Part shown: positions 10,387-58,951 of the stretch, piece by piece
Layout of the letters: every line of letters starts with the position of its first letter
Numbering within the stretch: the stretch's first letter is position 1
Source: Candidatus Altiarchaeota archaeon
GTDB lineage: Archaea; Altiarchaeota; Altiarchaeia; IMC4; QMZM01
Length of the DNA stretch: 64,000 nucleotides
Assembly: GCA_038891095.1 (NCBI GenBank)
Contig: JAWAEV010000001.1
Coordinates: 297,292-361,291 of the forward strand
Direction of reading: 5' to 3'
Made by a program: the position numbers and the translations under genes
Notes under the pieces: model-generated
Told to the model about the DNA's origin: nothing
The model's database searches: none
The model's input: the letters and a program-made list of their open reading frames with translations, nothing else

Positions 10387-11010
10387 ATGCCACTAAGAGC
10401 AATACTAAGATTTCTAAGGAGATTTTTTTGGAGGAAAAAAGTTATAAGATTGGGCTTATATGGCCCACCTAACTCAGGAAAGACAACACTAGCAAACAGA
10501 ATCTCTATTGACTGGACTGGTGAACCAGTTGGAACTGTTTCTGAAATTCCACATGAAACAAGAGAAGTTCAAAAGAAAGAGCGAATAACAGTGAGGTTTG
10601 GAAATAAAAAAATCGTGATGAGTTTAATTGATATGCCGGGAATTGCAACAAAAATCGACTATGAAGAATTCCTTAAATATGGGCTAACAAAAGAAAATGC
10701 AAAACAAAGAGCAAAAGAAGCAACGAAAGGTGTAATAGAAGCAATAAAATGGCTTGAGCATGTTGATACTGCATTAGTTGTTTTAGATTCGACAAAGGAT
10801 CCATACACACAAGTTAATATAACAATAATTGGAAATCTTGAAGCAAGAAAAATTCCAGTTATATTAGTTGCGAATAAAACTGATTTAAAAGATTCAAAAC
10901 CAGAATTGGTTGAAGAAGCATTTCCACAGCATCCGGTTGTGAAAGTTTCAGCTCTTAAGGGATATAATTTAGAAGAATTATACAACGCTATATATAAATA
11001 TTCAAAATGA
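10387..11010 (+). CDS. Small P-loop GTPase (archaeal conserved, first gene of GTPase-DUF2073-Zn-ribbon triad)
   Basis: 207 aa. G1 GPPNSGKTT, G3 DMPG, G4 NKTD. Confidence 0.6.
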   Translation: MPLRAILRFLRRFFWRKKVIRLGLYGPPNSGKTTLANRISIDWTGEPVGTVSEIPHETREVQKKERITVRFGNKKIVMSLIDMPGIATKIDYEEFLKYGLTKENAKQRAKEATKGVIEAIKWLEHVDTALVVLDSTKDPYTQVNITIIGNLEARKIPVILVANKTDLKDSKPELVEEAFPQHPVVKVSALKGYNLEELYNAIYKYSK

Positions 11011-11360
11011 AAATAGAGCTCGAATTTATTTCATCAGATGTTCTTAACCCAATGGGCGAGGACAGTAAAATAGAGTATATCATAGAAAAGATAAAAAAGG
11101 ATAAAATTATCATAACAGATGATAACCTCTCTCATAGAGAAGAAGCTCGGCTTATTGAGGAAACAATGAAAAGGATAAATGAGAATTTTCCAGGAATTGA
11201 AGTTTCAACACTTGGAGAGACAAAACAAGGGATTAGAGAAAAGCTTATAAGACTACTTGGTGGAAAAACAGGCGGGCTTACAATAATTGGACCTTCCAAG
11301 CTAATAAGAAAAATAAAAAAAGAGCCACAACAAATCTTTGTTTTAGCTGAGAAGAAATAA
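11007..11360 (+). CDS. Conserved archaeal protein (DUF2073-like), translationally coupled to upstream GTPase
   Basis: 117 aa. 4-nt overlap with the GTPase stop. Family assignment from memory, not verified. Confidence 0.35.
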   Translation: MKIELEFISSDVLNPMGEDSKIEYIIEKIKKDKIIITDDNLSHREEARLIEETMKRINENFPGIEVSTLGETKQGIREKLIRLLGGKTGGLTIIGPSKLIRKIKKEPQQIFVLAEKK

Positions 11361-11361
11361 A

Positions 11362-11742
11362 ATGCCTCATAAATGTGCTCGTTGCGGAGAAATTTATGAT
11401 GATGGCGCTCCTGAATTAATTCAAGGTTGCAAATGCGGAGCAAGGGTTTTTTTATATATTCGTGTTGGAGAAAACGAAAGTAAAGAGGAGGTTATTGCTA
11501 AGCTGAAGGGAAAAGAAATTTCAAGTTCTGATTTAGAATGGTTAGATAAGGAATTTGGAGATAAATTACAAGCAGAAGGAAAGACAATACATCTTGATGT
11601 TGAGACATTAGAAAGAATTGATGAAGGTAAATTTAAATTAGATGTTGCCTCTTTAATGAGAGGAAAACCAGTGGTTATAAAAGCAAAGGAAGGAGTTTAT
11701 TACATAGATATCCCATATGCATTTAAGAAAAAGAAGAAATAA
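11362..11742 (+). CDS. Zn-ribbon protein (DUF2072-like)
   Basis: 126 aa. N-terminal CxRCG...CKCG zinc ribbon (MPHKCARCGEIYDDGAPELIQGCKCG). Starts 2 nt after the previous stop. Confidence 0.4.
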   Translation: MPHKCARCGEIYDDGAPELIQGCKCGARVFLYIRVGENESKEEVIAKLKGKEISSSDLEWLDKEFGDKLQAEGKTIHLDVETLERIDEGKFKLDVASLMRGKPVVIKAKEGVYYIDIPYAFKKKKK

Positions 11743-11847: not shown

Positions 11848-12675
11848 TTAAACTTTCAACTTTGAGGAAATTTCTTTTGCTTGAAAATTTGCTTTTTGAA
11901 GCAAATAAGGAATTGTTTCTTTTGTTGGAATTTCTGTATTTAATGCCAAATTTAAAGTTTCGTTATATGCTCGTTGGATGAACAACTTTACAGTGTATTT
12001 AGTATAGAAATTTAAATTTAGTGATAAATTTATTGCCTCTCTTATTGCAGAATTAATTTTTTGATTAACAACATTTTTATTAATCATGAGAACATCTCTG
12101 CTGTAGATTAAACCATTATTATAAATCGCTCTTATACTGAACGAAATTTCTTTTGGAAAAACATTTAATCTTGGTAAAATTGCTGCAAGTTCTTTTGAAA
12201 TAGAACTATTTGCTTTTGCAACAACTGAATTCTCTGTGACAAAAATTTTTCCACCCTTTATCTGAGCTTTTATGCCAACTTTTTGTAGTTCTGCAAGAAT
12301 AGGTCCTGCTCTCAGACTTGTTTCTCCTGCAGGAATGACTATATCATAAGGTGCTTTATCTCCAGGTTTTAGTGGTGCAAATGTTTTATTTTCTTCAATT
12401 AGACTATTTACTTGTAATGGATCTAATTCTGAGAGCAATAATGCTGTTGAACCTTCAACCTCATTTACAATTTTGCTAAGTTTTGATTTTTCAAGAGCCT
12501 TTTTTATAATGCTTTTCTTACTAACATATATCTGAAGTTTATCCCTTAACTTTTTTCTCATAAGTTGAAATTGCTTTGAAGGAATTCCTAAAATTCCAAC
12601 AACTGCAACTGTTTTTGATTCAGAAATTTTCTTTGATAATTCTTCAACTTGCCTTAGTTTCCAATCTGCAACCAT
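11848..12675 (-). CDS. rpl10: 50S ribosomal protein L10 / acidic ribosomal protein P0 (short form lacking acidic C-terminal tail)
   Basis: 275 aa. MVADWKLRQVEELSKKI...VAVVGILGIPSKQFQ..RKKLR is the P0 N-terminal rRNA-binding domain. No D/E-rich C-terminus. Confidence 0.75.
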   Translation of the reverse strand: MVADWKLRQVEELSKKISESKTVAVVGILGIPSKQFQLMRKKLRDKLQIYVSKKSIIKKALEKSKLSKIVNEVEGSTALLLSELDPLQVNSLIEENKTFAPLKPGDKAPYDIVIPAGETSLRAGPILAELQKVGIKAQIKGGKIFVTENSVVAKANSSISKELAAILPRLNVFPKEISFSIRAIYNNGLIYSRDVLMINKNVVNQKINSAIREAINLSLNLNFYTKYTVKLFIQRAYNETLNLALNTEIPTKETIPYLLQKANFQAKEISSKLKV

Positions 12676-12726: not shown

Positions 12727-13431
12727 TTAGGGGCAGTTAACAAAGTAGAACTCTACAAAATCATTATTTTTCATTCCTAAGGCTTTCCATGTACCATCTG
12801 CTAAATCAATCCCTGCCAGATTTTTAACTTTTCTTCCAAAAGTATCTAAACCATTATTATAATTCCAATAAAATGCTGCGTGTGCTTCAGGTAAGCCTCT
12901 TGGTAATGTCGTAAAGGTTTCTCTATCAAAATCCCAATAGTTATCCTTAGTATTCCAAGGCCCAGTGTCTTTAACTCTTTCGATTACACTCTTACCATTT
13001 TTTGGATTTATAACTTTAACGCACTTATTTTTTGCTTTATATGAAGGCAACGCAACAAATCTATCATTCTCCTTGATTATATGGCCAGTTGATGTTTTTT
13101 TGCCAACTAAACCTTCTCTTGTTGCAAATACTGTAAATGGCTTTGCCATATAACTTACTGTTGGTGTAGTTAAAATTTTTCCAGAATAAAAATTTTCTGT
13201 TTTTAATTTATTATTTTGTATACTTACTAAATTTGAAGGTTTTTTAGAGATAGTACTTATACTTAACTTTTGTTGATTACTGTTGTATAGAACGCTATTT
13301 TTATTATTTGCTATTTTTGATATGCTAACTGAAGAAATTGGTAGATTTGAAATTTCAATTTTATCTGCACAACAAATTTGTAAAAAATAAAAAACAAAAA
13401 TTGATATTATAAAAAAACTTATGTTTTTCAT
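12727..13431 (-). CDS. Secreted protein with C-terminal RlpA/3D-like double-psi beta-barrel domain (possible glycan-cleaving or binding domain)
   Basis: 234 aa. N-terminal signal/TM segment, then an Asn/Ser-rich linker. The C-terminal TSTGHIIKENDRFVALPSYKAKNKCVKVINPKNGKSVIERVKDTGPW resembles the RlpA/MltA-3D/expansin DPBB motif ...TASGE...A...LP.G..V.V.N..NG.SV.V.DRGP. Confidence 0.45.
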   Translation of the reverse strand: MKNISFFIISIFVFYFLQICCADKIEISNLPISSVSISKIANNKNSVLYNSNQQKLSISTISKKPSNLVSIQNNKLKTENFYSGKILTTPTVSYMAKPFTVFATREGLVGKKTSTGHIIKENDRFVALPSYKAKNKCVKVINPKNGKSVIERVKDTGPWNTKDNYWDFDRETFTTLPRGLPEAHAAFYWNYNNGLDTFGRKVKNLAGIDLADGTWKALGMKNNDFVEFYFVNCP

Positions 13432-13498
13432 TCTAAATTAAAAATTTTTTATGAATATTATATTAAATTCTATATATAAAAATTGATATTATATCTTT

Positions 13499-14422
13499 TC
13501 ATAAAAAATTTTTGAATAATGCGCATCTGTATGGGTCAGAAGCATTTAGGTTTTTAGTTATGGCATAAGCCCTTGCTTTACAACCTTTTCCACATATATT
13601 CTTTTTTTCACATTTACCGCAAGATTTTTCAAGACCTTCTCTTACTTTCTTTACTACATCTGAATTTAATGATTTTGAAAGTTCTCCGAAATTAAACGCA
13701 TTCCCTACAATTAGTTCTCTTAGCATAGGACAAGGAGTTATTTTTCCATCTGCAAGAACAGCAACTCTTGAATAACCAACTCCGCATGATGGCATTACAA
13801 CTTTGTCATTAGAATTTAAAAATTTTTTTATTATTTTAGCATATTCCTTAGCACAAATACCATTGTTAATTGCCCTTCCTGTCGGGACAACAACATCAAC
13901 TCTATAGTCAGAAACACCAAATTTCTGTAATAATTTTATCATCTTGTCAATCTCATTTTTATTTTTTTTAGAAAGAACTGTGCTAACTCGAACAGGAATT
14001 TCAAATGAATTGCAAATTTTTATAGCATTTACCGCTTTTTTAAAAGAACCTCTTATACCACGAATTTCATCATGAATTTTGGAAGATACAGCATCTAAAC
14101 TTATTTGAACATATTTGATAAATTCTCTTTTTTTAGAGATATCTTCTGCAAATTTATAAAAAAAGAAGCCATTTGTTTCAAGCTCTATTCTCAAGCCCAT
14201 CTCTGCAGCATAGTTAAAAATTTCAATAAAATTTTTATGCAATGTTGGCTCACCACCAGTTAAAGCGATTCTATTTCCTCCGATATCTGAAAACTCATTT
14301 ATAATTCTCAATGCTATGTCTACTGGCATATCAATTCCATTTCTCTTTGAATTTGCATAACAATGTTCACATCTAAGATTGCATTTGCTTGTTAATTCAA
14401 GATCAATTTTTTCAAGTTTCAT
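13499..14422 (-). CDS. Radical SAM enzyme with C-terminal SPASM/twitch domain (peptide/protein-modifying maturase family)
   Basis: 307 aa. CNLRCEHC (Cx3Cx2C) near the N-terminus, GGEPTL, and C-terminal Cys cluster CGVGYSRVAVLADGKITPCP...CGKCEKKNICGKGCKARAY typical of SPASM auxiliary 4Fe-4S sites. Confidence 0.8.
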   Translation of the reverse strand: MKLEKIDLELTSKCNLRCEHCYANSKRNGIDMPVDIALRIINEFSDIGGNRIALTGGEPTLHKNFIEIFNYAAEMGLRIELETNGFFFYKFAEDISKKREFIKYVQISLDAVSSKIHDEIRGIRGSFKKAVNAIKICNSFEIPVRVSTVLSKKNKNEIDKMIKLLQKFGVSDYRVDVVVPTGRAINNGICAKEYAKIIKKFLNSNDKVVMPSCGVGYSRVAVLADGKITPCPMLRELIVGNAFNFGELSKSLNSDVVKKVREGLEKSCGKCEKKNICGKGCKARAYAITKNLNASDPYRCALFKNFL

Positions 14423-14470
14423 TTTTTAGGTAAAATTAATAAAAAGAAGCCTTAACATTGGCGCCTCATG

Positions 14471-14677
14471 TTAAGGCTTAAAAATTTTCCCTATTTTGGA
14501 AGAACTGTTAGGATAACTTTTCTTTCCATTTTTCTCACCTCGCAAATTTTTATCTTGATGCGAATATGAAAAAAACTTTTGCTGAACTGTAGAGAGCATA
14601 AGTAGAAGGTAGAGAGCAAAAAAAGAACACAGAACAGCAAAAGTTATAAGTAAATTTATTGCAATAAAATCAAACAA
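14471..14677 (-). CDS. Small (68 aa) membrane protein immediately upstream of the rSAM/SPASM gene
   Basis: One strong TM helix then a polar Lys/Ser-rich tail. A 48-nt gap separates it from the rSAM start, on the same strand. Confidence 0.3.
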   Translation of the reverse strand: MFDFIAINLLITFAVLCSFFALYLLLMLSTVQQKFFSYSHQDKNLRGEKNGKKSYPNSSSKIGKIFKP

Positions 14678-14830
14678 AATAAAAGCATTATAGATGTAAT
14701 TATTTTAGAAATTTTAGAATTAAGCCTAAGTGAATTTGAAAGTAGTGCATTTTTATTTGCTTTCTTGGACTTTATTTCTGACATTTTAATAATGGTATAA
14801 AATTAGATTTAGTAGATTAAAAATTAGAAT

Positions 14831-15466
14831 TTATAAAACTCTAACTGGCTCTGACATTGTTCTTTTTATGTATATTGAAGAAATTTTATCTTCTGGAATT
14901 TGCCTTTCAATTGCTATCAAAACTGTATTGAAATTCTCTAAAAGATCATCAGCTGACATATCTTCTGTGCCAATCGGAACATGAACTGCTAAACCTTTCT
15001 TTGATTTTATTCTCACAGAATTTTTATACTTTGAAATAATTTGTTCTAAATCTACATTTGATGGTAAAGGCTGAGGCATTTTTCCTCTTGTTCCAAGAAC
15101 AACTCCCCAAAATTTTCCAACAACTGGTAGAAGTTCTGGTTGAGATAGAAACCAATAACATTTACTTGCAATTTTTCTTATCTTTCGTTTATCTCTTGAG
15201 TATTCCTCTATTTCATGTCTGTCAAAAACATAATTGGAAAATTTTTTTGCTTTTAAATTTAAATCACCATCAGCAAAAACCCCAATTTCAGTTTCTTTCC
15301 CTCTGCTTTTTGGTAATTGTACAATAAGATTTAACTTATCTTTTGTTTCCAGATCAACACCATGCTTAAAATTTACTATCATTTCAATACTCTGCTTGAA
15401 TTTGCCTTTCTTTTTTTCTTTTTTCAAAAGTTCTTCCATTTTTTCAGAAATTTTTTTCTTATCCAT
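14831..15466 (-). CDS. rpl1: 50S ribosomal protein L1
   Basis: Start taken at MDKKKISEKMEELLKK (ATG at 15466), which abuts the rpl11 stop with a 1-nt gap; the longer ORF would overlap rpl11 by 50 nt. KFKQSIEMIVNFK and the GVFADGDL/VHVPIG motifs typify L1. Confidence 0.85.
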   Translation of the reverse strand: MDKKKISEKMEELLKKEKKKGKFKQSIEMIVNFKHGVDLETKDKLNLIVQLPKSRGKETEIGVFADGDLNLKAKKFSNYVFDRHEIEEYSRDKRKIRKIASKCYWFLSQPELLPVVGKFWGVVLGTRGKMPQPLPSNVDLEQIISKYKNSVRIKSKKGLAVHVPIGTEDMSADDLLENFNTVLIAIERQIPEDKISSIYIKRTMSEPVRVL

Positions 15467-15467
15467 T

Positions 15468-16208
15468 TTATTTCTTATCTTCCTTAACTGCTTTTTCTTT
15501 TTGTTGAGATACAACATCTACTGGTAATAACTGCTCATAAATTTGCTTTGGAATTCCTTCTTTCTCTAATCTATCTATTATTTGCTCCCTTGTTTTGCCT
15601 TGCATCTCATCAATAATTTTCTTTGTTTTTGCTTCAAGTTCTGCTCTTCTTGTTTCAATTTCCTTTCTTAATTTTTCTCTCTCCTCCTCAAGTTTTTTAA
15701 GTTCCTCTTCTGTTAATTCTGTTTTACTTGCCAATATTTTATCTTTGTATTTACCTCTATTTATTTCTTCAATTATTTCTCTTGCATTTTTTCCTTCAAC
15801 AAGTACTCCTAAGGATTGGCAAGTCCCTAAAACTTCTTTAACTTTTGCTATATTATCTTTTCCTAAGAAAGCATCGCTCTTCATTTTTGCAATTTTTATC
15901 ACTTGCTCTATTGCTAAATCCGCAACTTTTTCTGTTTTTGGGTTAGATGCGCCTTTTTCTATTCCTGCCTCTTTCTTTATTAACGCTGATGTTGGAGGTG
16001 TACCAACTTCTATAGTATAGCTTTTTGTGTCACTATCAACTATTATCCTAACTGGGACTTTCATTCCAACGAAGTCTTTTGTCGCATCATTAACAGCTTT
16101 TATTACTTCATTTATATTTAAACCTAATGGACCTAACATTGGACCAAGTGGTGGTCCAGGTGATGCTTTACCACCATCGATTAATTGCTCTACTATCTCT
16201 TTTGTCAT
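15468..16208 (-). CDS. rpl11: 50S ribosomal protein L11 with ~85-aa charged coiled-coil C-terminal extension
   Basis: 246 aa. The N-terminal 160 aa are canonical L11 (GGKASPGPPLGPMLGPLGLNINEV...). The C-terminal ...TEEELKKLEEEREKLRKEIETRRAELEAKTKK... is not part of standard L11. Confidence 0.8.
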   Translation of the reverse strand: MTKEIVEQLIDGGKASPGPPLGPMLGPLGLNINEVIKAVNDATKDFVGMKVPVRIIVDSDTKSYTIEVGTPPTSALIKKEAGIEKGASNPKTEKVADLAIEQVIKIAKMKSDAFLGKDNIAKVKEVLGTCQSLGVLVEGKNAREIIEEINRGKYKDKILASKTELTEEELKKLEEEREKLRKEIETRRAELEAKTKKIIDEMQGKTREQIIDRLEKEGIPKQIYEQLLPVDVVSQQKEKAVKEDKK

Positions 16209-16210
16209 TT

Positions 16211-16780
16211 TTATTCTTCTTCAATCTCATGAGAGACTTCTTTATTTTCTTCTTCTGTTTTTTGAGAAATTTCAGTTTCCTCCTCTTTTTTTATTAATTT
16301 TATATCATATGCTTTAACAATAACTGGAATTGGAACAGTTGCTTCAATAAGCTCTACAGTAATTTGATTCTTTGTGGTATCTATCCTAGCAACTCTTGCC
16401 TTTTCTCCTTTGAACGGCCCGTTAATCAATTCAACTAAATCTCCTTTGTTAACTCTCTCAACAATTGGTGTTGGTCTTAGTATTTTTTCTAACTCATCTA
16501 AGGTTATAACTCCTGCAGAATCTAAACTTCCTTTCTTTCTTAGTAAAAGTCCCTTTGTATGAGAGATCCCTCTAGCTAAATTATCAACTGCTCCTGGATT
16601 TTCAGCCTCGACTAAAACATAGCCTTTTAGTTCAGGAGCATATAAAATTGAGTAAATCCCACTCTCTGATTCATTATTTTTCTTTCTTGCAATTACTTCC
16701 TCATACATAAGTTGGGATACGATTTTTTCCTGATTTGTTGTTACTTTAACAATATATATCTTTGTATTTTGCTCTGACAT
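16211..16780 (-). CDS. spt5: Transcription elongation factor Spt5 (NusG homolog) with KOW domain and acidic tail
   Basis: 189 aa. NGN domain IYIVKVTTNQEK, KOW GDLVELINGPFKGEKARV, Glu-rich C-terminus. Sits in the conserved position between secE and rpl11. Confidence 0.8.
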   Translation of the reverse strand: MSEQNTKIYIVKVTTNQEKIVSQLMYEEVIARKKNNESESGIYSILYAPELKGYVLVEAENPGAVDNLARGISHTKGLLLRKKGSLDSAGVITLDELEKILRPTPIVERVNKGDLVELINGPFKGEKARVARIDTTKNQITVELIEATVPIPVIVKAYDIKLIKKEEETEISQKTEEENKEVSHEIEEE

Positions 16781-16835: not shown

Positions 16836-17024
16836 TTATTTAATTAAATTTGATATGGTCTTGGATATAAGGAACACTAAAAATCCTATAAGACCTATGA
16901 CAATTATTCCAACACCTGTAATTTTTGCAATTTCAAGGTATTCATATCTTTTTGGTTTTCTTGTTAATCTAAGTATCCTTCTAACTTCAAGAAAAATTTC
17001 AACTATCTTATTCTTTATACCCAT
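16836..17024 (-). CDS. secE: Protein translocase subunit SecE (Sec61 gamma)
   Basis: 62 aa. LEVRRILRLTRKPKRYEY followed by a single TM helix. Conserved position upstream of spt5. Confidence 0.7.
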   Translation of the reverse strand: MGIKNKIVEIFLEVRRILRLTRKPKRYEYLEIAKITGVGIIVIGLIGFLVFLISKTISNLIK

Positions 17025-17084: not shown

Positions 17085-18245
17085 TTACACATATTTAAGT
17101 CCTATGTCTGTAGCATGCTCTGTTTTCCCTTCTTCTATCATCTCTTCAAGTTCCTCTTCATATTTTGGAGTTCTAACACCTGAAAGAATGATTAATGTCT
17201 TTATTATATTTCTATCTAAAGAATCATCAATTTGTGCTCCCCAGATTATTGCTGCATTTGGTGATATACTTTCAGAAACGATTCTTACTATTTCCTCTGA
17301 CTCTTCTAGGGTCATATCTCTTGATCCAATAACATTAACTAATGCTCCAGTTGCTGTACTTATATCTGTATCAAGCAATGGGGACTTTAATGCTTTTTCA
17401 ACACTCTCTCTTGAACGATCTTCCATTGGTGTGTCTTTTGTTGATGAACCCATACCAATTAATGCTGTTCCGCCACCTGACATTATTGCTTTAACATCTG
17501 CAAAATCCAAATTTATCAATCCTGGTTTAGTAACCATTTCTGTAATTCCCTTTACAGCATTTGCAAGCAATTCATCAGCAACTTTAAATGCTGCATTTAG
17601 AGGTAAATTTGGTGCAATTTCTAAAAGTCTATCATTTGGGATAACTATTACAGTATCGGTATATTTTCTCAATTTTTTCAGTCCCATGAGAGCATTTCTT
17701 GCTCTAACTCTGCCTTCAACAGTGAAAGGCAAAGTAACAACACCAATTGTTAGAGCATTTTGCTCTTTAGCGATTTCTGCAATTACAGGCAATGCTCCTG
17801 TACCTGTACCCCCACCAAGGCCACAAGTGACAAAAACCATATCTGCTCCTGTTAGAACTTCTGCTATTTTTTTCGCATCTGCTTCTGCACATTTCTCTCC
17901 AATCTCTGGATTATTGCCAGCACCAATTCCACCAGTAATTGAAGCACCAATTAAAATTTTTGTAGGTGTTTTTGTATACAAAAGATCAAGAGCATCTGTA
18001 TTTACCGCAATTACATCACCACCATGAATCCCCATCTCCATTAACCTGTCAAGAGTATTTGAACCTGCGCCACCTGCACCAACAACTTTTATAGCAGTTC
18101 TTATACCTTCAACAATTCTCCTAAGCTCTTCATCAGAGTCACCAAACTTTCTTTCCATTTCTCCTGTTGGATTTAATTTTTTCTTTTCAGTTTTTTCTTC
18201 ATCTAAATTCGCTCTATGAATAGCATTCTGAATAATTGCTTCCAT
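17085..18245 (-). CDS. ftsZ: Cell division GTPase FtsZ (paralog 1)
   Basis: 386 aa. Has the N-terminal GAGGAGSNTLDRL motif and the tubulin/FtsZ signature GLGGGTGTGALPVIAE. Confidence 0.9.
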   Translation of the reverse strand: MEAIIQNAIHRANLDEEKTEKKKLNPTGEMERKFGDSDEELRRIVEGIRTAIKVVGAGGAGSNTLDRLMEMGIHGGDVIAVNTDALDLLYTKTPTKILIGASITGGIGAGNNPEIGEKCAEADAKKIAEVLTGADMVFVTCGLGGGTGTGALPVIAEIAKEQNALTIGVVTLPFTVEGRVRARNALMGLKKLRKYTDTVIVIPNDRLLEIAPNLPLNAAFKVADELLANAVKGITEMVTKPGLINLDFADVKAIMSGGGTALIGMGSSTKDTPMEDRSRESVEKALKSPLLDTDISTATGALVNVIGSRDMTLEESEEIVRIVSESISPNAAIIWGAQIDDSLDRNIIKTLIILSGVRTPKYEEELEEMIEEGKTEHATDIGLKYV

Positions 18246-21594: not shown

Positions 21595-21728
21595 GCCGCT
21601 GTAGCGCAGACTGGGAGCGCAATCGGCTGAAGACCGCAAAATTCAAAAAATTTTTAAAGTTGCAGAATAATTCTTTTCCATTGCGGTCTGTTACCGATGT
21701 GTCGTGGGTTCAAATCCCACCGGCGGCA
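21595..21728 (+). tRNA. tRNA-Phe (anticodon GAA) interrupted by a ~60-nt intron at the canonical 37/38 position
   Basis: Hand fold. Acceptor GCCGCTG pairs with CGGCGGC (one G-U), discriminator A. D-arm GCGC-AGACTGGGA-GCGC. Anticodon stem ATCGG with loop CTGAAGA. The 3' half of the stem (CCGAT) occurs only after a ~60-nt insert whose ends GACCGCAA and TTGCGGTC are exact reverse complements, forming a BHB-type helix. T-arm GTGGG-TTCAAAT-CCCAC. Confidence 0.75.
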
Positions 21729-23255: not shown

Positions 23256-23801
23256 ATGCTCAAGAAAAAAAGCAAGAAAGAGGATCTAATGCACTTATCA
23301 AAAGTTGATGAAAAATCTAAAGAGAAAACTGATGAAAAAAATTTGGAGGAAAAGTTAAAGGAGTGTGAAGATCAGCTACTTAGACTAAGGGCAGAATTTG
23401 AAAATTATAAAAAACAGCTTGATACACAATACATGGAAAATGTAAAAAATGCAAATGCTTCCCTAATAAAAGAAATTTTGCCAGTTATTGATGAATTTGA
23501 AATTGCAATTGAAAATATAAGGAAAAAGGATGAAAAAACCGCAGAGGGTATTGAATTGATCTACAAAAAAATGATGAAAATTCTCGAGCAAAATGGTTTA
23601 AAAGCAATTGACTCTGTTGGAAAAAAATTTGATCCTTACTACCATGAGGTATTAATGAATGAAAATTCAGAAAAGGAAGATGGCATAATTCTTGAGGAAT
23701 TCCAGAAAGGTTATCTATTTAATGGAAAAGTTATAAGACATTCTAAGGTTAAAATTTCTTGTCATATAGAGGATCAAAAAGGAGGTAATAAAAATGGCTG
23801 A
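23256..23801 (+). CDS. grpE: Nucleotide exchange factor GrpE
   Basis: 181 aa. [13 protein letters not shown] signature and coiled-coil N-terminus. GGTGA Shine-Dalgarno 8 nt upstream. Confidence 0.85.
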
Positions 23802-31586: not shown

Positions 31587-32495
31587 ATGTTTACGCCTGA
31601 ATTTTTATTGCGAAATTTTGTATATGAGTTGAGAATTTTTACATGGAATGTATTTCAGTTATTTGTTGCTGTTGTTGTTGGCTTGATTCTTGGCTGGCTT
31701 GTCTCAAAGGTTGTTAATAGGTTATTAAAACTGGCAGAACTCCAAAGAACATTACTTAGATATGGAGCAATAACAACCATCTTCTGGGATTCTGCTGTTG
31801 GCTTTCTATCGCATTATTTTATGTGGCTAACACTCATACTAATTATATATGCTGTATTTCCAGGAAATTTATTAATAAAAGCACTTGCTGAATTCTTTGT
31901 GAAATTATTTGGCTTTATCATATTTACATTAGTTGGAATACTACTTAGTGGTGTTCTCTACAAGATATCAAAGCATACATTAATTGCAATTGGTTTGGAA
32001 GAGGAACTAGAAAAACATAAAATTGCTGATAAACTTGGGGGAGTCTCATTGATAAACATACTTGCAGGGATTCTCAAGTGGTTTGTAATTATAGTTTTTG
32101 TAAAGCAAGGGGTAGAACTTCTTGGATTGGGAGCACTTACTGATGTAACGCATCAGCTCTATAATTACATTCCACAGGCAATTTTGGGAATTTTAATTTT
32201 GTTAGCAACTCTAATTCTCGCTGATTTAGCATCTTCAAACATAAGGAAAAGAGCATATGGTTTTGCAGATGCTCTTGGTATGGCTACTGAAGTTGTGATA
32301 ATTTTCTTTGGAATCATAATCGCTCTCCCAAGATTGTTAGGTGTGTCAGATCCACAAGGTCAGATATTTCTACAATCAATATCAGTAATGACAGATTCTT
32401 TTAAACTTTTAATGTTAGGAGTTTCAGCAGGAATAGCACTTGCGATTGGTTTGGGTTTAAAGGATTATGTGGCAAAGATGAGCAAGAAGTTGTAA
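31587..32495 (+). CDS. Polytopic membrane protein with repeated conserved-TM-helix units (MscS-associated PF05552-like, tentative)
   Basis: 302 aa with 6-8 hydrophobic helices and internally repeated LxxLxxVTxxxxxxIP-like segments. Confidence 0.3.
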   Translation: MFTPEFLLRNFVYELRIFTWNVFQLFVAVVVGLILGWLVSKVVNRLLKLAELQRTLLRYGAITTIFWDSAVGFLSHYFMWLTLILIIYAVFPGNLLIKALAEFFVKLFGFIIFTLVGILLSGVLYKISKHTLIAIGLEEELEKHKIADKLGGVSLINILAGILKWFVIIVFVKQGVELLGLGALTDVTHQLYNYIPQAILGILILLATLILADLASSNIRKRAYGFADALGMATEVVIIFFGIIIALPRLLGVSDPQGQIFLQSISVMTDSFKLLMLGVSAGIALAIGLGLKDYVAKMSKKL

Positions 32496-51335: not shown

Positions 51336-52658
51336 ATGAAAAGAGAGGATAAAAACAAAATAGTAAAAACAATCATATTTGTTTCCATATCTTTTTCTCT
51401 ATTTTTTATTTTTTATACTGTTTTTGCCCATACAAATTCCAGTAGGGTCTCAGCAAACTATTTTTTGTATTTAATGGGAAGATTAATGGGCCTTATCAGT
51501 TTTCTTTTTTTGTCTATTCTTATAATTTCTGGTGACACAGCAAGATTCTTTGATAGATTTTTTGGGATGGATAGGATAATAAAATTTCAGAGAAAATTTT
51601 CTTTGATAATTTGTATATTTGTTGTACTGCATCCTGTATTTTTTATTGCAGCAGAGAGTGTACCTGCTCTTGATTATCTGCTGCCAAACTTCTCAGTACT
51701 TCCTTTAGCTTTGGGCACATTGTCTTTTTATATTTTTATTGTTATACTGATAGCATCAAGACTATATAAGAGAATATCATATGATGGATGGCAATATCTC
51801 CATGTTCTGACATATATTCTTTTCTTTTTCGTTTTGTATCATGCTGTAAATATTGGTTCTTCTTACAATTCCTCGGCACTTGTAAAAACAATTTATTTTT
51901 TCATGTTGATTTTTGTGTTGATAGGTATAGTATATAGAACAAATTATAAGCTCAAGCAAAGAGGTTTGAAATTTTTTGTTAAAAATATTGAATGGGAAAC
52001 AAAAGACGCTTTTACTTTAACTTTAAAGCCAAACAAACAATTTTCATTCAAAGCAGGACAATTTTGTTTTTTGAGACTGAAAAAAGATAAGTTGTATGCA
52101 AGACATCCATTTACAATATCTAGCTCTCCAAAGGAAGAAAATTTGAGCTTTACAATGAAGTTGACAGGTAGATTTACAAAAGCGGCTTCGGAGTTAAAAA
52201 AAGGGGAAGAAGTTATTGTAGACGGTCCTTTTGGTATATTCACAATTGAAGATCATGAAAAAGACTTAGTATTCATTGCAGGCGGTGTTGGAATTGCTCC
52301 TTTTATGAGTATGATAAAAAATCAACTTGAGAGTGAGAAAAAACAGAACGTCCTTTTGTTGTATGGCTCAAAAACGAAAGACGATATAATATTCAAAAAA
52401 CAATTGGATAGTGTAAAAAAGGTTTGGTTTAAGAAAGTGTATGTGTTGGATAAAGTTGATAGTAATGATACTTCTACAGAAAAATTTGAAAAAGGGCCTA
52501 TAAGAAAAGAAATGATAGAAAGTTATGTTAAAGATGTGAAAAATTCATTGTTTTACATTTGTGGTCCAGAACCTATGAAGGAATATGTGAAAAAAATATT
52601 GCTATCCGAACTAAAAGTCAGTAAAAATAACATAAGGATTGAAAGTTTCTTTTGGTGA
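51336..52658 (+). CDS. NOX/ferric-reductase-like flavocytochrome (FRD transmembrane di-heme domain plus FAD/NAD(P)-binding FNR-like domain)
   Basis: 440 aa. The TM region has paired His (HPVFF..., YLHVLTYILFFFVLYHAV). FAD motif RHPFTISSSP, NAD motif VFIAGGVGIAPF, C-terminal ICGPEPM. Confidence 0.7.
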   Translation: MKREDKNKIVKTIIFVSISFSLFFIFYTVFAHTNSSRVSANYFLYLMGRLMGLISFLFLSILIISGDTARFFDRFFGMDRIIKFQRKFSLIICIFVVLHPVFFIAAESVPALDYLLPNFSVLPLALGTLSFYIFIVILIASRLYKRISYDGWQYLHVLTYILFFFVLYHAVNIGSSYNSSALVKTIYFFMLIFVLIGIVYRTNYKLKQRGLKFFVKNIEWETKDAFTLTLKPNKQFSFKAGQFCFLRLKKDKLYARHPFTISSSPKEENLSFTMKLTGRFTKAASELKKGEEVIVDGPFGIFTIEDHEKDLVFIAGGVGIAPFMSMIKNQLESEKKQNVLLLYGSKTKDDIIFKKQLDSVKKVWFKKVYVLDKVDSNDTSTEKFEKGPIRKEMIESYVKDVKNSLFYICGPEPMKEYVKKILLSELKVSKNNIRIESFFW

Positions 52659-57573: not shown

Positions 57574-57794
57574 ATTTCAACTTCAAATCCTTTCTCTTTT
57601 AAAATTCTAATTAATTCTTCTAAATTTTTTCCTTGCTTTTTGATTCCTTGCCTTAATGTTGTTATTCTACCAAGAGTATTTCTCATAACAGGATTTTTTA
57701 CACCTAAAAAACCTCGTTCATAAAGTATTTCAATTAGCTCAGGGTATTGATCTGTGAGTTCAAAAATGCTCTTATCAATACTTATCTTTTTCAT
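57570..57794 (-). CDS. DUF1858-like small protein (hemerythrin/hybrid-cluster-associated domain family, tentative)
   Basis: 74 aa. Distal gene of a three-gene overlapping operon with the DUF438-like and hemerythrin genes. Confidence 0.4.
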   Translation of the reverse strand: MKKISIDKSIFELTDQYPELIEILYERGFLGVKNPVMRNTLGRITTLRQGIKKQGKNLEELIRILKEKGFEVEI

Positions 57795-58951
57795 AGCAAT
57801 CTTTTTTCACCTTCAAGTTTTCTTATCTCTGTGATATCTTGTATTACTTCTAATGTGCCTAAATACACTCCATTTTGGTCTCTTATAGCGAAATATCTTA
57901 TATGCACAAATCTACCTTTAAAATTTATCCAAAATTCTGCAACATCTCTTTTGCCTGATTTAAAATCATTTAATATTTCTTCAACTTTATCTAAGCTTTG
58001 TGGTGGATGACAATTCCTTACATTTCTCTTAAGAACTGCTCTTGGTCTTAGGAATATTCTATTTTTTGTTTCTGAGAAATATGCAACTGTGTCATTTTTA
58101 TCAATGAATGTTATATCAACTGGTAAATTATTCAATATGTTCACCAACTCTTCTAATGATAATTCTCCTGAAGGAAATTCTATTATTCCGTCATGGTAAA
58201 CTGGCTCCTCAACTGTTGTTCTTTTGATTTCTTCAACAAGTTTTTCTATGTCTTTTGGAGCTTCTATATAACAGTAGCCAACATCCCTACTCTGTTTTAG
58301 AATTTCTATCCAATCATCAATTTTTAGTTTTTCTAAAGACACTGGAAACAAAATGTTCTCTTCTTTGAAAATCATCCCCTCAATTTCTTCAATTAGAGGT
58401 TTTAAAAAATGTGTTAGGTCTTCAGTTTCAACAATGTCAACTTTATTAATCGCATCTCTTAACATCTGCCTTATATCATTGTGCTTACCCCACATAACTT
58501 TTGATGGTCCATAAAATCCCGCTCTCTCTAAGTAGGGGAAAAGCAATTGCTCTTTTCTTGTATAATGCTTATCTATATCTCTGAGTTTGTATAACAATTC
58601 TCTAATTTTCTCTTTTTTTCTTTCTCCCTTTAGTTGAGATAAAATTTTTTCTATTTCTCTATTCTCAAGTTTAAAAATGTATATTGGATGCGCATTTGAA
58701 ACTTCTTTTAGCTCCTGCTTTAATGCTGTTTCGAAAAGCAGTGCATGTACATTACAAAATTTTTTTATTTCCTCAACTGTGATGCCTTCATTTATCAATG
58801 ATTGCTCAATTTCAGCGATTTCATGAGAGGTTATTGTGCCAATTTCTTTAAGTAGGATTTCTTCTGCTTTTTCAAAACTTAAGCCTTGATGTAGTTGCTT
58901 TATTATTTCTTTTACAACTTCTTTCTTTTTGTTTTTAAGAATTTCGGCCAT
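57791..58951 (-). CDS. DUF438-like protein (PAS-like/hemerythrin-like multi-domain sensor family, tentative)
   Basis: 386 aa. 4-nt overlaps on both sides. This gene order with DUF1858 and hemerythrin recurs in anaerobes (from memory). Confidence 0.4.
   Translation of the reverse strand: MAEILKNKKKEVVKEIIKQLHQGLSFEKAEEILLKEIGTITSHEIAEIEQSLINEGITVEEIKKFCNVHALLFETALKQELKEVSNAHPIYIFKLENREIEKILSQLKGERKKEKIRELLYKLRDIDKHYTRKEQLLFPYLERAGFYGPSKVMWGKHNDIRQMLRDAINKVDIVETEDLTHFLKPLIEEIEGMIFKEENILFPVSLEKLKIDDWIEILKQSRDVGYCYIEAPKDIEKLVEEIKRTTVEEPVYHDGIIEFPSGELSLEELVNILNNLPVDITFIDKNDTVAYFSETKNRIFLRPRAVLKRNVRNCHPPQSLDKVEEILNDFKSGKRDVAEFWINFKGRFVHIRYFAIRDQNGVYLGTLEVIQDITEIRKLEGEKRLL

Follow-up and report, generated by a model that had tools for sequence, protein, structure and literature searches.

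A small precursor gene, a hairpin and a SPASM enzyme form the standard layout of the loci in which radical S-adenosylmethionine (SAM) enzymes act on peptides that are made by the ribosome and modified after translation (RiPPs) or on peptide cofactors. We analyzed a stretch of 64,000 nucleotides from Candidatus Altiarchaeota archaeon (Candidatus Altarchaeota, kingdom Nanobdellati, in the current taxonomy), positions 297,292 to 361,291 of contig JAWAEV010000001.1 (assembly GCA_038891095.1), referred to here as the window. The interval between its ribosomal-protein genes rpl1 and rpl10 holds the gene of a radical SAM/SPASM enzyme, a short open reading frame (ORF) ahead of it, termed the mini-ORF, and a gene for an exported protein with a predicted double-psi beta-barrel (DPBB) domain. 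The enzyme and the mini-ORF were compared with the radical SAM/SPASM maturases SkfB, CteB, SuiB/StrB, PqqE, MftC, EpeE/YydG and TvgB/TigE.

Leader-independent radical SAM enzymes exist, and PqqE has no RiPP recognition element (RRE) of its own (PMC8326336). SPASM enzymes that modify Val and Ile are known, and in the TvgB/TigE cyclopropyl synthases a GYW motif ligates auxiliary cluster I (PMC10878394). Compared with the known maturases, the window system has neither an RRE domain nor a separate PqqD-like gene, and its enzyme, unlike the cyclopropyl synthases, lacks the GYW motif. The peptide encoded by the mini-ORF is leaderless and only 12-15 residues long in the lineages compared; it contains no Cys, Tyr, Trp, Glu-Tyr or Val-Tyr, so that the known cross-links are impossible. 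In contrast to known RiPP loci, this one carries no protease or transporter and lies inside a ribosomal-protein operon of a DPANN-type archaeon.

A conserved mini-ORF ahead of the enzyme gene

Four lineages with radical SAM proteins 53-100% identical have an older module in common: the window with L001-L003 (same species; enzymes 99-100% identical), L004 (82%), L005 (59%) and L006/L007 (53%). As proposed here, the module would run from a Shine-Dalgarno-led mini-gene of 12-15 residues through a stable hairpin, a T-tract (in three of the four) and the RRE-less radical SAM/SPASM gene to rpl10. The mini-ORF was present in all four lineages with a length of 12-15 codons, always led by a Shine-Dalgarno sequence and always on the strand of the enzyme gene. 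At the position of the window peptide (Table 1), the counterparts read MKEKVIITVLPK in L004, MKKTLKLLVTLLPK in L005 and MKIKEGKVLVILLPK in L006/L007, each followed by a stop codon; the Shine-Dalgarno sequence is GGAGGTG in L005 and AGGTG in L006. A C-terminal alignment of the four peptides gave K-[VL]-[IL]-[LIV]-[TI]-[VL]-L-P-K-stop. All four share K(-9), L(-3), P(-2) and K(-1), and the flanking DNA of L005 and L006 could not be aligned. Relative to L004, the Shine-Dalgarno sequence and its spacer are 100% identical, and the mini-ORF DNA is 82% identical with zero indels, the core substitutions being synonymous or conservative. The lone difference from a 98% relative within the mini-ORF is synonymous (AGA to AGG).

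Among the 846 window ORFs with an ATG start and 8-31 residues, the mini-ORF is the only one that ends in LPK-stop, and the background of such endings in 1.49 Mb of unrelated loci was 1 in 9055. These counts bear on the explanation that mini-ORF and hairpin arose by chance in an AT-rich spacer and that the enzyme is an orphan without a local partner. The short sequences, the mere four lineages and the L004 hairpin, which is not significant, would fit chance. That so rare an ORF is nevertheless found once per spacer in four of four lineages, Shine-Dalgarno-led and on the enzyme strand, makes chance hardly credible, as does the 100% conservation of the Shine-Dalgarno sequence and the hairpin flanks against L004 despite a 38% difference at the synonymous sites of neighboring genes.

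A Shine-Dalgarno-like motif was found within 18 nt of the start in only about 9 of the 59 long ORFs of the window. The sequence ahead of most starts is A/T-rich and points to initiation that in this genome is mostly leaderless or independent of Shine-Dalgarno pairing. Strong GAGGTGA sites were seen at ftsZ, at 23256, at 31587 and at the mini-ORF; the ATG of the enzyme gene has no Shine-Dalgarno sequence.

In the preliminary description, a SPASM enzyme was expected to have a small substrate encoded nearby. This expectation may hold for a different ORF, the one of 12-15 residues, which went unseen there; a conserved small precursor ORF beside the enzyme, as in RiPP loci, is present in four of four lineages. 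We infer, tentatively and with slightly less than even confidence, that the mini-ORF peptide and the radical SAM enzyme are a maturase-substrate pair. The mini-peptide, with the core K-Φ-Φ-Φ-(T/I)-Φ-L-P-K-COOH, would be the substrate, and the pair would be a minimal one of RiPP-like or peptide-derived-metabolite type, without a leader. The pairing is favored because of the layout, the peptide- or protein-modifying nearest solved relatives of the enzyme, a relative with a 55-residue ORF and the published precedents. Without Cys or aromatic residues, the mini-peptide cannot carry thioether or aromatic cross-links. The remaining chemistry would be hydrogen abstraction on aliphatic or Lys side chains or at C-alpha, with epimerization, an aliphatic or Lys C-C bond, or C-terminal chemistry as in mycofactocin as candidate outcomes. 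The invariant flanking Lys and the terminal Leu-Pro-Lys argue for a sequence-specific role, which would also be compatible with an arrest peptide.

If the pairing is true, the system would be among the smallest of radical SAM/SPASM enzymes and their substrates (an enzyme of 307 residues and a peptide of 12, with no leader and no recognition domain) and a compact target for enzymology. Its substrate chemistry (aliphatic, Lys, Pro) would lie outside the known repertoire of thioether and aromatic cross-links. For annotation, the informative ORF of the locus is one too short for any gene caller.

Affiliation of the radical SAM/SPASM enzyme

The assignment of the 307-residue protein as a radical SAM enzyme with a SPASM domain, made in the preliminary description, was borne out. 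Pfam Radical_SAM, Fer4_12 and SPASM all scored above threshold; PF04055 reached 94.4 bits (threshold 29.5), placing the protein in the radical SAM superfamily, and PF13186 (SPASM) reached 25.7 (threshold 21.5). The CX3CX2C residues C14, C18 and C21 are invariant across the family. For the SPASM domain, with its two auxiliary 4Fe-4S clusters, the test pattern was C-x9-15-G-x4-C ... C-x2-C-x5-C-x3-C ... C; the seven cysteines were found as C213-x12-G226-x4-C231, C268/271/277/281 and C300 and are kept in four of four members. The model PF05402 for a PqqD-like RRE gave no match, no PqqD-like gene was seen at the window or related loci, and the radical SAM core begins at residue 5 of the predicted model.

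None of the four family members passed a curated NCBIfam cutoff. Three heme-pathway models were compared (TIGR04545, TIGR04055 and TIGR04051). The best curated match was AhbD (TIGR04545) with 162.9 bits, the top value among the four members, against a cutoff of 500; the scores with NirJ2 and with the third model were 139 and 116 bits, and the cutoffs there are 500 and 515. AhbD and NirJ resemble the window enzyme in giving the highest-scoring curated models, in length (about 330 residues) and in lacking an RRE; unlike AhbD, which forms a widespread clade, the window family stands outside that clade as an isolated cluster. Membership in the AhbD, NirJ, anSME, MoaA, mycofactocin, PqqE and sactisynthase families was rejected at scores far under the curated cutoffs. 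No ahbA/B/C, hem, nir or siroheme genes were found in the 64-kb window, and no ahbA/B/C or siroheme genes in the related loci. An anSME was further discounted by a profile score of 40.8 bits, by its absence from the top NCBIfam matches and by the lack of a sulfatase in the window. The earlier proposal had depended on an enzyme outside AhbD and anSME, and by the curated cutoffs the enzyme does lie outside both. A cyclopropyl synthase of the TvgB/TigE type was rejected as well, the family reading GVGYS, GIAET, GVGET and GVGEN in place of GYW. Similarity to anti-phage viperin extended over the radical SAM core alone (89 bits to pVip); viperins have no SPASM domain.

The family is strikingly isolated. 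At 50% identity, all its members among 15 billion proteins fall into one cluster. In a word-indexed search of 5.8 billion clusters, four clusters scored 599-627 bits before a fall to 213 bits, and an exhaustive HMM scan of 1.84 billion representatives gave one at 627 bits, the next reaching 271 bits at 39% identity. The profile search and the exhaustive HMM search added no further member. By sequence and by fold, the nearest solved structures are those of SkfB, CteB, PqqE, SuiB and anSME, all modifiers of peptides or proteins. Relatives outside the family include archaeal forms of 460-490 residues, some with PqqD/RRE domains. The nearest named outgroup enzyme (33% identity) is encoded in a metagenome-assembled genome (MAG) of Margulisiibacteriota (GCA_034723395.1; L090, 3790-7335), in a cluster of typical RiPP-like appearance with a 55-residue upstream ORF, a DUF512-like protein, a second radical SAM enzyme with a PDZ domain and an ABC transporter. 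The gene contexts of two further outgroup enzymes (P0242 and P0125) were uninformative.

The spacer hairpin and a possible leader function

Behind the mini-ORF of the window lies a 12-bp hairpin with a folding z-score of -4.55; 0 of 200 shuffles folded as well. The hairpins of L005 and L006 had z-scores of -3.31 and -2.73. The hairpin sequence differs between lineages, and its position after the mini-ORF is the same: it begins 9-11 nt past the stop in the window and in L006, and in L005 it overlaps the stop, its 5' arm covering the last codons. Both the stretch from the mini-ORF stop to the hairpin and that from the T-tract to the enzyme ATG are 100% identical to L004, the latter except for 2 gap columns. 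A T-tract follows the hairpin in three of four lineages. No Rfam family was found in the spacer at gathering thresholds or at E<=1. A scan for sigma-70 promoters and intrinsic terminators, which is not meaningful for archaea, did not rise above shuffles and left the hairpin site unflagged. In the maturase-substrate reading, the hairpin and T-tract would be the usual attenuator that holds the peptide transcript in excess over the enzyme transcript.

The same elements can be read as a cis-regulatory leader. Translation of the mini-ORF, as an upstream ORF, would melt or permit the hairpin and T-tract and so set the expression of the enzyme and perhaps of rpl10; the enzyme would then be a housekeeping one with a cofactor (a tetrapyrrole, as for AhbD/NirJ) or some distant protein as its target. 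We regard this as possible, though not probable. A strong Shine-Dalgarno sequence, 12-15 codons, a hairpin, a T-tract and a downstream gene without a Shine-Dalgarno sequence are the layout of a classical attenuator, and a terminating ribosome could reach the hairpin, given the overlap in L005 and the short distance in the window and L006. Codons for Val, Ile, Leu and Thr predominate in the mini-ORF, and the ilv and leu leaders are likewise rich in them. As in the ilv/leu/thr attenuators, a Val/Ile/Leu/Thr-rich mini-ORF, a stem-loop and a T-run stand ahead of the regulated gene; unlike them, the locus is archaeal, its downstream gene does not serve amino-acid biosynthesis, the flanking Lys and terminal Leu-Pro-Lys of its peptide are conserved and no antiterminator structure is demonstrated. 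The retention of K(-9), L(-3), P(-2) and K(-1) in four of four lineages despite diverged DNA exceeds the needs of leaders that work through codon composition. No mutually exclusive antiterminator pairing was identified at the hairpin, and we know of no established case of ribosome-mediated attenuation in archaea. For a housekeeping enzyme speak the top curated matches to AhbD (163 bits) and NirJ2 (139 bits), the AhbA/B-like and AhbC-like neighbors of the 33% identical P0248 and a heme-type ferric-reductase domain protein encoded in the window. Every heme-family score, however, lies below one third of its cutoff, and ahbA/B/C and hem genes are absent from the 64 kb.

Returning to the maturase-substrate pair, several points weigh against it. 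The independent lineages are only four, all of them short contigs or one species, and the conserved order may for that reason be inheritance and not function. RRE, protease, transporter and immunity gene are all absent at the locus, and a leaderless precursor of 12 residues is extreme among known cases. Mini-ORF, hairpin and T-tract stand in exactly the arrangement of a leader peptide with a regulatory role. In L004 the hairpin is weak (z-score -0.98), with an 8-bp core kept. The top curated models are those of the heme enzymes AhbD and NirJ2, though far under cutoff, and P0248 adjoins genes of the heme pathway type named above.

A fuller proposal is that the RRE-less SPASM enzyme matures a leaderless K-Φ4-5-LPK peptide of 12-15 residues into a new type of aliphatic- or Lys-modified peptide or a small molecule derived from it, the system lying within the ribosomal stalk operon and sharing its regulation by way of a hairpin that responds to translation; we hold this combination to be rather unlikely. 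If true, it would be the first RiPP-like system of a DPANN/Altiarchaeota archaeon, and we know of no characterized natural products from this phylum. Hairpin and mini-ORF together would be a rare candidate for translation-coupled control in archaea.

Two other ORFs of the spacer were evaluated. An ORF of 68 residues, which the preliminary description had presented as a transmembrane protein, did not hold up as a gene. It is uncalled by gene callers on every related contig, no ORF of at least 35 residues stands at that place in L004, and indels of 4, 5, 2 and 10 nt relative to L004 break the frame. It has no family match in Pfam or NCBIfam, overlaps the conserved 12-codon ORF out of frame and extends into the conserved hairpin. 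An ORF of 42 residues has similarly laid-out ORFs at the same place in L004, L005 and L006, and its indels relative to L004 are multiples of 3. Its ratio of nonsynonymous to synonymous substitution (dN/dS) is 1.06, its DNA identity of 76% equals that of the non-coding spacer, and it has no Pfam match even at E<=10; Sec61-beta and other known small proteins were rejected on these three grounds, and its status as a gene is doubtful. Between this ORF and the Shine-Dalgarno sequence of the mini-ORF (14542-14655, minus strand), the blocks TTATAACTTTTGCTG.TCTGTGTT and ACAGTTCAGCAAAAG are well conserved relative to L004 (193-317) and might be the promoter or 5' untranslated region of the mini-ORF transcript.

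The interrupted operon and its exported DPBB protein

The report of a lineage-specific interruption of the rpl11-rpl1-rpl10 string was confirmed. In the window, rpl1 and rpl10 are separated by 2155 nt and the rpl11-rpl1-rpl10-rpl12 order is not contiguous, whereas the DPANN control locus L009 keeps the canonical string spt5-rpl11-rpl1-rpl10-rpl12 contiguous; the interruption is therefore genuine. It was also correctly seen that no rpl12/P1 gene follows rpl10, and a P1/rpl12-like ORF was found nowhere in the 64-kb window. L001-L003 have the gene order of the window. L004 begins with 27 nt of the rpl1 3' end, followed by spacer, enzyme gene, DPBB gene and rpl10, and L008 (DPBB protein 85% identical) is arranged in the same way. 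In L005 and L006/L007, rpl10 directly follows the enzyme gene after gaps of 107 and 71 nt, and the DPBB gene is absent; rpl1 was not found within 300-650 nt upstream in L005 or L006. The DPBB gene thus stands between the enzyme gene and rpl10 only in the window, L001-L004 and L008. Neither rpl10, rpl1 nor a DPBB gene was near the radical SAM gene in any of the 80 metagenomic loci listed with enzymes at most 33% identical. A scan of genome contigs with rpl10 patterns returned one Nanohaloarchaea locus and no further member of the enzyme family. The two bacterial DPBB neighborhoods examined (Limnocylindrales and Pedosphaera) contained no radical SAM gene.

The conserved unit is the enzyme gene with its spacer elements and rpl10, and the DPBB gene entered later, between enzyme gene and rpl10, in one sub-lineage. 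Since enzyme gene and rpl10 occur without it in L005 and L006, and since its kin are bacterial and lack a radical SAM neighbor, the DPBB gene is taken as a later horizontal insertion. Purifying selection acts on the enzyme, DPBB and rpl10 genes (dN/dS 0.11-0.18). A single inserted cassette had been proposed: the lineage-specific interruption remains, and by synteny across the related loci it breaks down into two separate insertions. We read the rpl1-rpl10 interval as two unrelated acquisitions of different age and not as one enzyme-substrate cassette. Adjacency within a conserved operon alone is, for annotation, no sign of function.

These data bear most directly on the original proposal of one functional cassette for a modified surface or lytic factor, in which the enzyme would mature its exported DPBB neighbor or the 68-residue ORF. 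Synteny separates the enzyme and DPBB genes and therefore removes the basis of that pairing: L005 and L006 have the enzyme gene but no DPBB gene, and the DPBB family is bacterial and in two neighborhoods without a radical SAM gene. The frame of the 68-residue ORF is not conserved. The DPBB domain carries no conserved motif of the Cys/Ser-x-Pro-x-Arg type, and neither C136, its sole cysteine, nor the C-terminal C233 is invariant in the family alignment. The proposal is now very improbable. The enzyme could instead modify a part of the translation machinery (uL10/P0 or a different protein of the stalk, rRNA or tRNA), with the mini-ORF incidental or regulatory. Its adjacency to rpl10 in four of four lineages, even without rpl1 upstream, and an unusual stalk, with a P0 lacking the acidic tail and no P1 gene nearby, would fit; we nevertheless consider a target in translation improbable.

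Bacterial peptidoglycan hydrolases have been acquired by archaea before, namely a GH25 lysozyme in Aciduliprofundum and GH23 transglycosylases in Woesearchaeota, and a 2025 survey of archaeal peptidoglycan hydrolases, the text of which does not mention DPBB or RlpA, adds to the precedent (PMC4241558, PMC9723730, PMC12352652). The window protein is like them in being exported and in that the kin of its domain are bacterial and fused to peptidoglycan-binding modules. It differs from the archaeal GH25, GH23 and amidase hydrolases in its predicted DPBB fold and in its gene lying within a ribosomal-protein operon; peptidoglycan is its putative target.

The preliminary description of this protein as exported and resembling RlpA, MltA-3D or expansin barrels stood in part. 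Export and a DPBB fold are supported, the latter by superposition of residues 95-234 of the predicted model on DPBB proteins. The closest known systems to the domain are RlpA-like, expansin and barwin barrels (PA4485 4AVR, RlpA, EXLX1, loosenins). The Pfam models DPBB_1 (PF03330) and 3D (PF06725) gave no match at E<=0.1, and TIGR00413 (rlpA) scored 26.4 against a cutoff of 82.15; the barrel is for that reason assigned by fold and not by family membership. Compared with RlpA, expansin and barwin proteins, the domain falls in no curated model and, between its psi-loops, has a predicted insertion (WNTKDNYW...FGRKVKN) some 45 residues long. The predicted model has a helix at residues 5-20, and the Cys of the LQIC motif is conserved in the 85% relatives. 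The linker has pLDDT values of 28-35 and a GC content of 0.22-0.24, and the bacterial homologues have no counterpart to it.

More than 1000 proteins match the DPBB domain at 50-55% identity. The named homologues beyond its own clade are from Chloroflexota, Verrucomicrobiota and Actinomycetota; others are unnamed. The modules fused to them are PG_binding_1, PG_binding_3, SH3_3, LGFP, Golvesin_C and CarboxypepD_reg. The family alignment has 40 invariant columns, among them several Asp, one within an IDLADG motif. Because of its bacterial kin, purifying selection (dN/dS 0.11) and a base composition that matches the host, the gene is regarded as an established one of bacterial ancestry. The younger insertion, restricted to the window species and its 82-85% relatives, would have brought a Sec-exported, possibly lipid-anchored protein with a DPBB domain from bacteria. 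At the surface of the archaeon it would target bacterial cell-wall glycan as an antibacterial or wall-binding protein, and the radical SAM enzyme would play no part in this. We infer such a protein, exposed at the surface and binding or cleaving this glycan, because of the bacterial ancestry and the peptidoglycan-binding fusions of the homologues. This assignment is weakened in that the family profile, like the single sequence, finds no solved structure by sequence and the catalytic residues of the domain could not be mapped; moreover, binding without cleavage is common among DPBB proteins, as in expansins, loosenins, kiwellin and papain inhibitor. With the DPBB gene, a new fold class joins the few cell-wall-targeting proteins that archaea have captured from bacteria, which is relevant to archaeal-bacterial antagonism or attachment. 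It is an ordinary case of bacterial-to-archaeal transfer of a cell-wall-type protein; the previously unannotated module of mini-ORF, hairpin and orphan SPASM enzyme, present in four lineages, is the more interesting part of the locus.

Table 1. Features of the interrupted ribosomal-protein operon, in window positions
Feature	Position	Strand	Remark
Shine-Dalgarno sequence GAGGTGA	14535-14541	-	5 nt before the mini-ORF ATG; read from the sequence
Mini-ORF, MERKVILTVLPK, then stop	14491-14529	-	candidate substrate peptide or regulatory leader
Hairpin, 12 bp, AAGCCUUAACAU / AUGUUAAGGCUU, 9-nt loop	14447-14479	-	
T-tract (CTTTTTATT) and A/T-rich stretch to the enzyme ATG	14423-14446	-	possible terminator, promoter or both
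Radical SAM/SPASM enzyme, 307 residues, without RRE domain	13499-14422	-	
234-residue ORF (exported DPBB protein)	12727-13431	-	
Signal peptide of the 234-residue protein, residues 1-23, MKNISFFIISIFVFYFLQICCA, followed by D	13363-13431	-	by inspection
Ser/Asn/Ile-rich low-complexity linker, residues 24-94	13150-13362	-	
DPBB domain, residues 95-234, bacterial origin	12730-13149	-	well-predicted
rpl10 (uL10/P0), 275 residues, without acidic tail	11848-12675	-	downstream edge of the interruption; Pfam Ribosomal_L10 and RL10P_insert
rpl1 (uL1)	14831-15517	-	upstream edge of the interruption; Pfam Ribosomal_L1 134 bits; NF003244 227 bits, cutoff 203
Spacer, 408 nt	between rpl1 and the 307-residue ORF		
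42-residue ORF, hydrophobic C terminus, possible tail-anchored protein	14656-14784	-	coding status doubtful
68-residue "TM" ORF, TTG start	14471-14677	-	judged spurious
rpl11	15468-16208	-	
spt5	16211-16780	-	
secE	16836-17024	-	
ftsZ	17085-18245	-	

The listed rpl1 ORF overlaps the end of rpl11 by 50 nt (15468-15517). NCBI annotates a shorter rpl1 of 211 residues in the 98% relative L002, and the true start is therefore probably the internal Met of MDKKKISEK. Downstream, genes for an OapA-like GTPase, OapB and OapC (10387-11742, plus strand) converge on rpl10 from the opposite strand, and the GC skew flips its sign near 11.8 kb, where the coding strand also switches.

The uL11 protein has 246 residues, with two L11 domains in residues 9-137 and a Lys/Glu-rich, coiled-coil-like C-terminal extension of about 100 residues. 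The uL11 of a Nanohaloarchaea MAG (L009, 4607-5356; 249 residues, 54% identity over 229 residues) has the same extension. This tail has the look of a lineage-specific addition to a protein of the stalk base. In L006, P0 (1994-3067) has a long acidic tail without the terminal GLxALFG motif, and no rpl12 follows rpl10; L009 (6001-7175) has a normal rpl12, which ends in AAAGLSALFG. Possibly the window group has an unusual ribosomal stalk, or its P1 gene lies elsewhere.

Elsewhere in the window, Rfam gave a tRNA of 134 nt at 21595-21728 (plus strand; 50 bits), unreported by ARAGORN, which is probably an intron-containing archaeal tRNA. The genes at 51336-52658 (plus strand) and 57791-58951 (minus strand) encode a membrane flavocytochrome of the NOX/ferric-reductase type (Ferric_reduct, FAD_binding_8 and NAD_binding_1) and a DUF438-hemerythrin-PAS sensor, a hint that this archaeon may use heme and sense oxygen or redox state.

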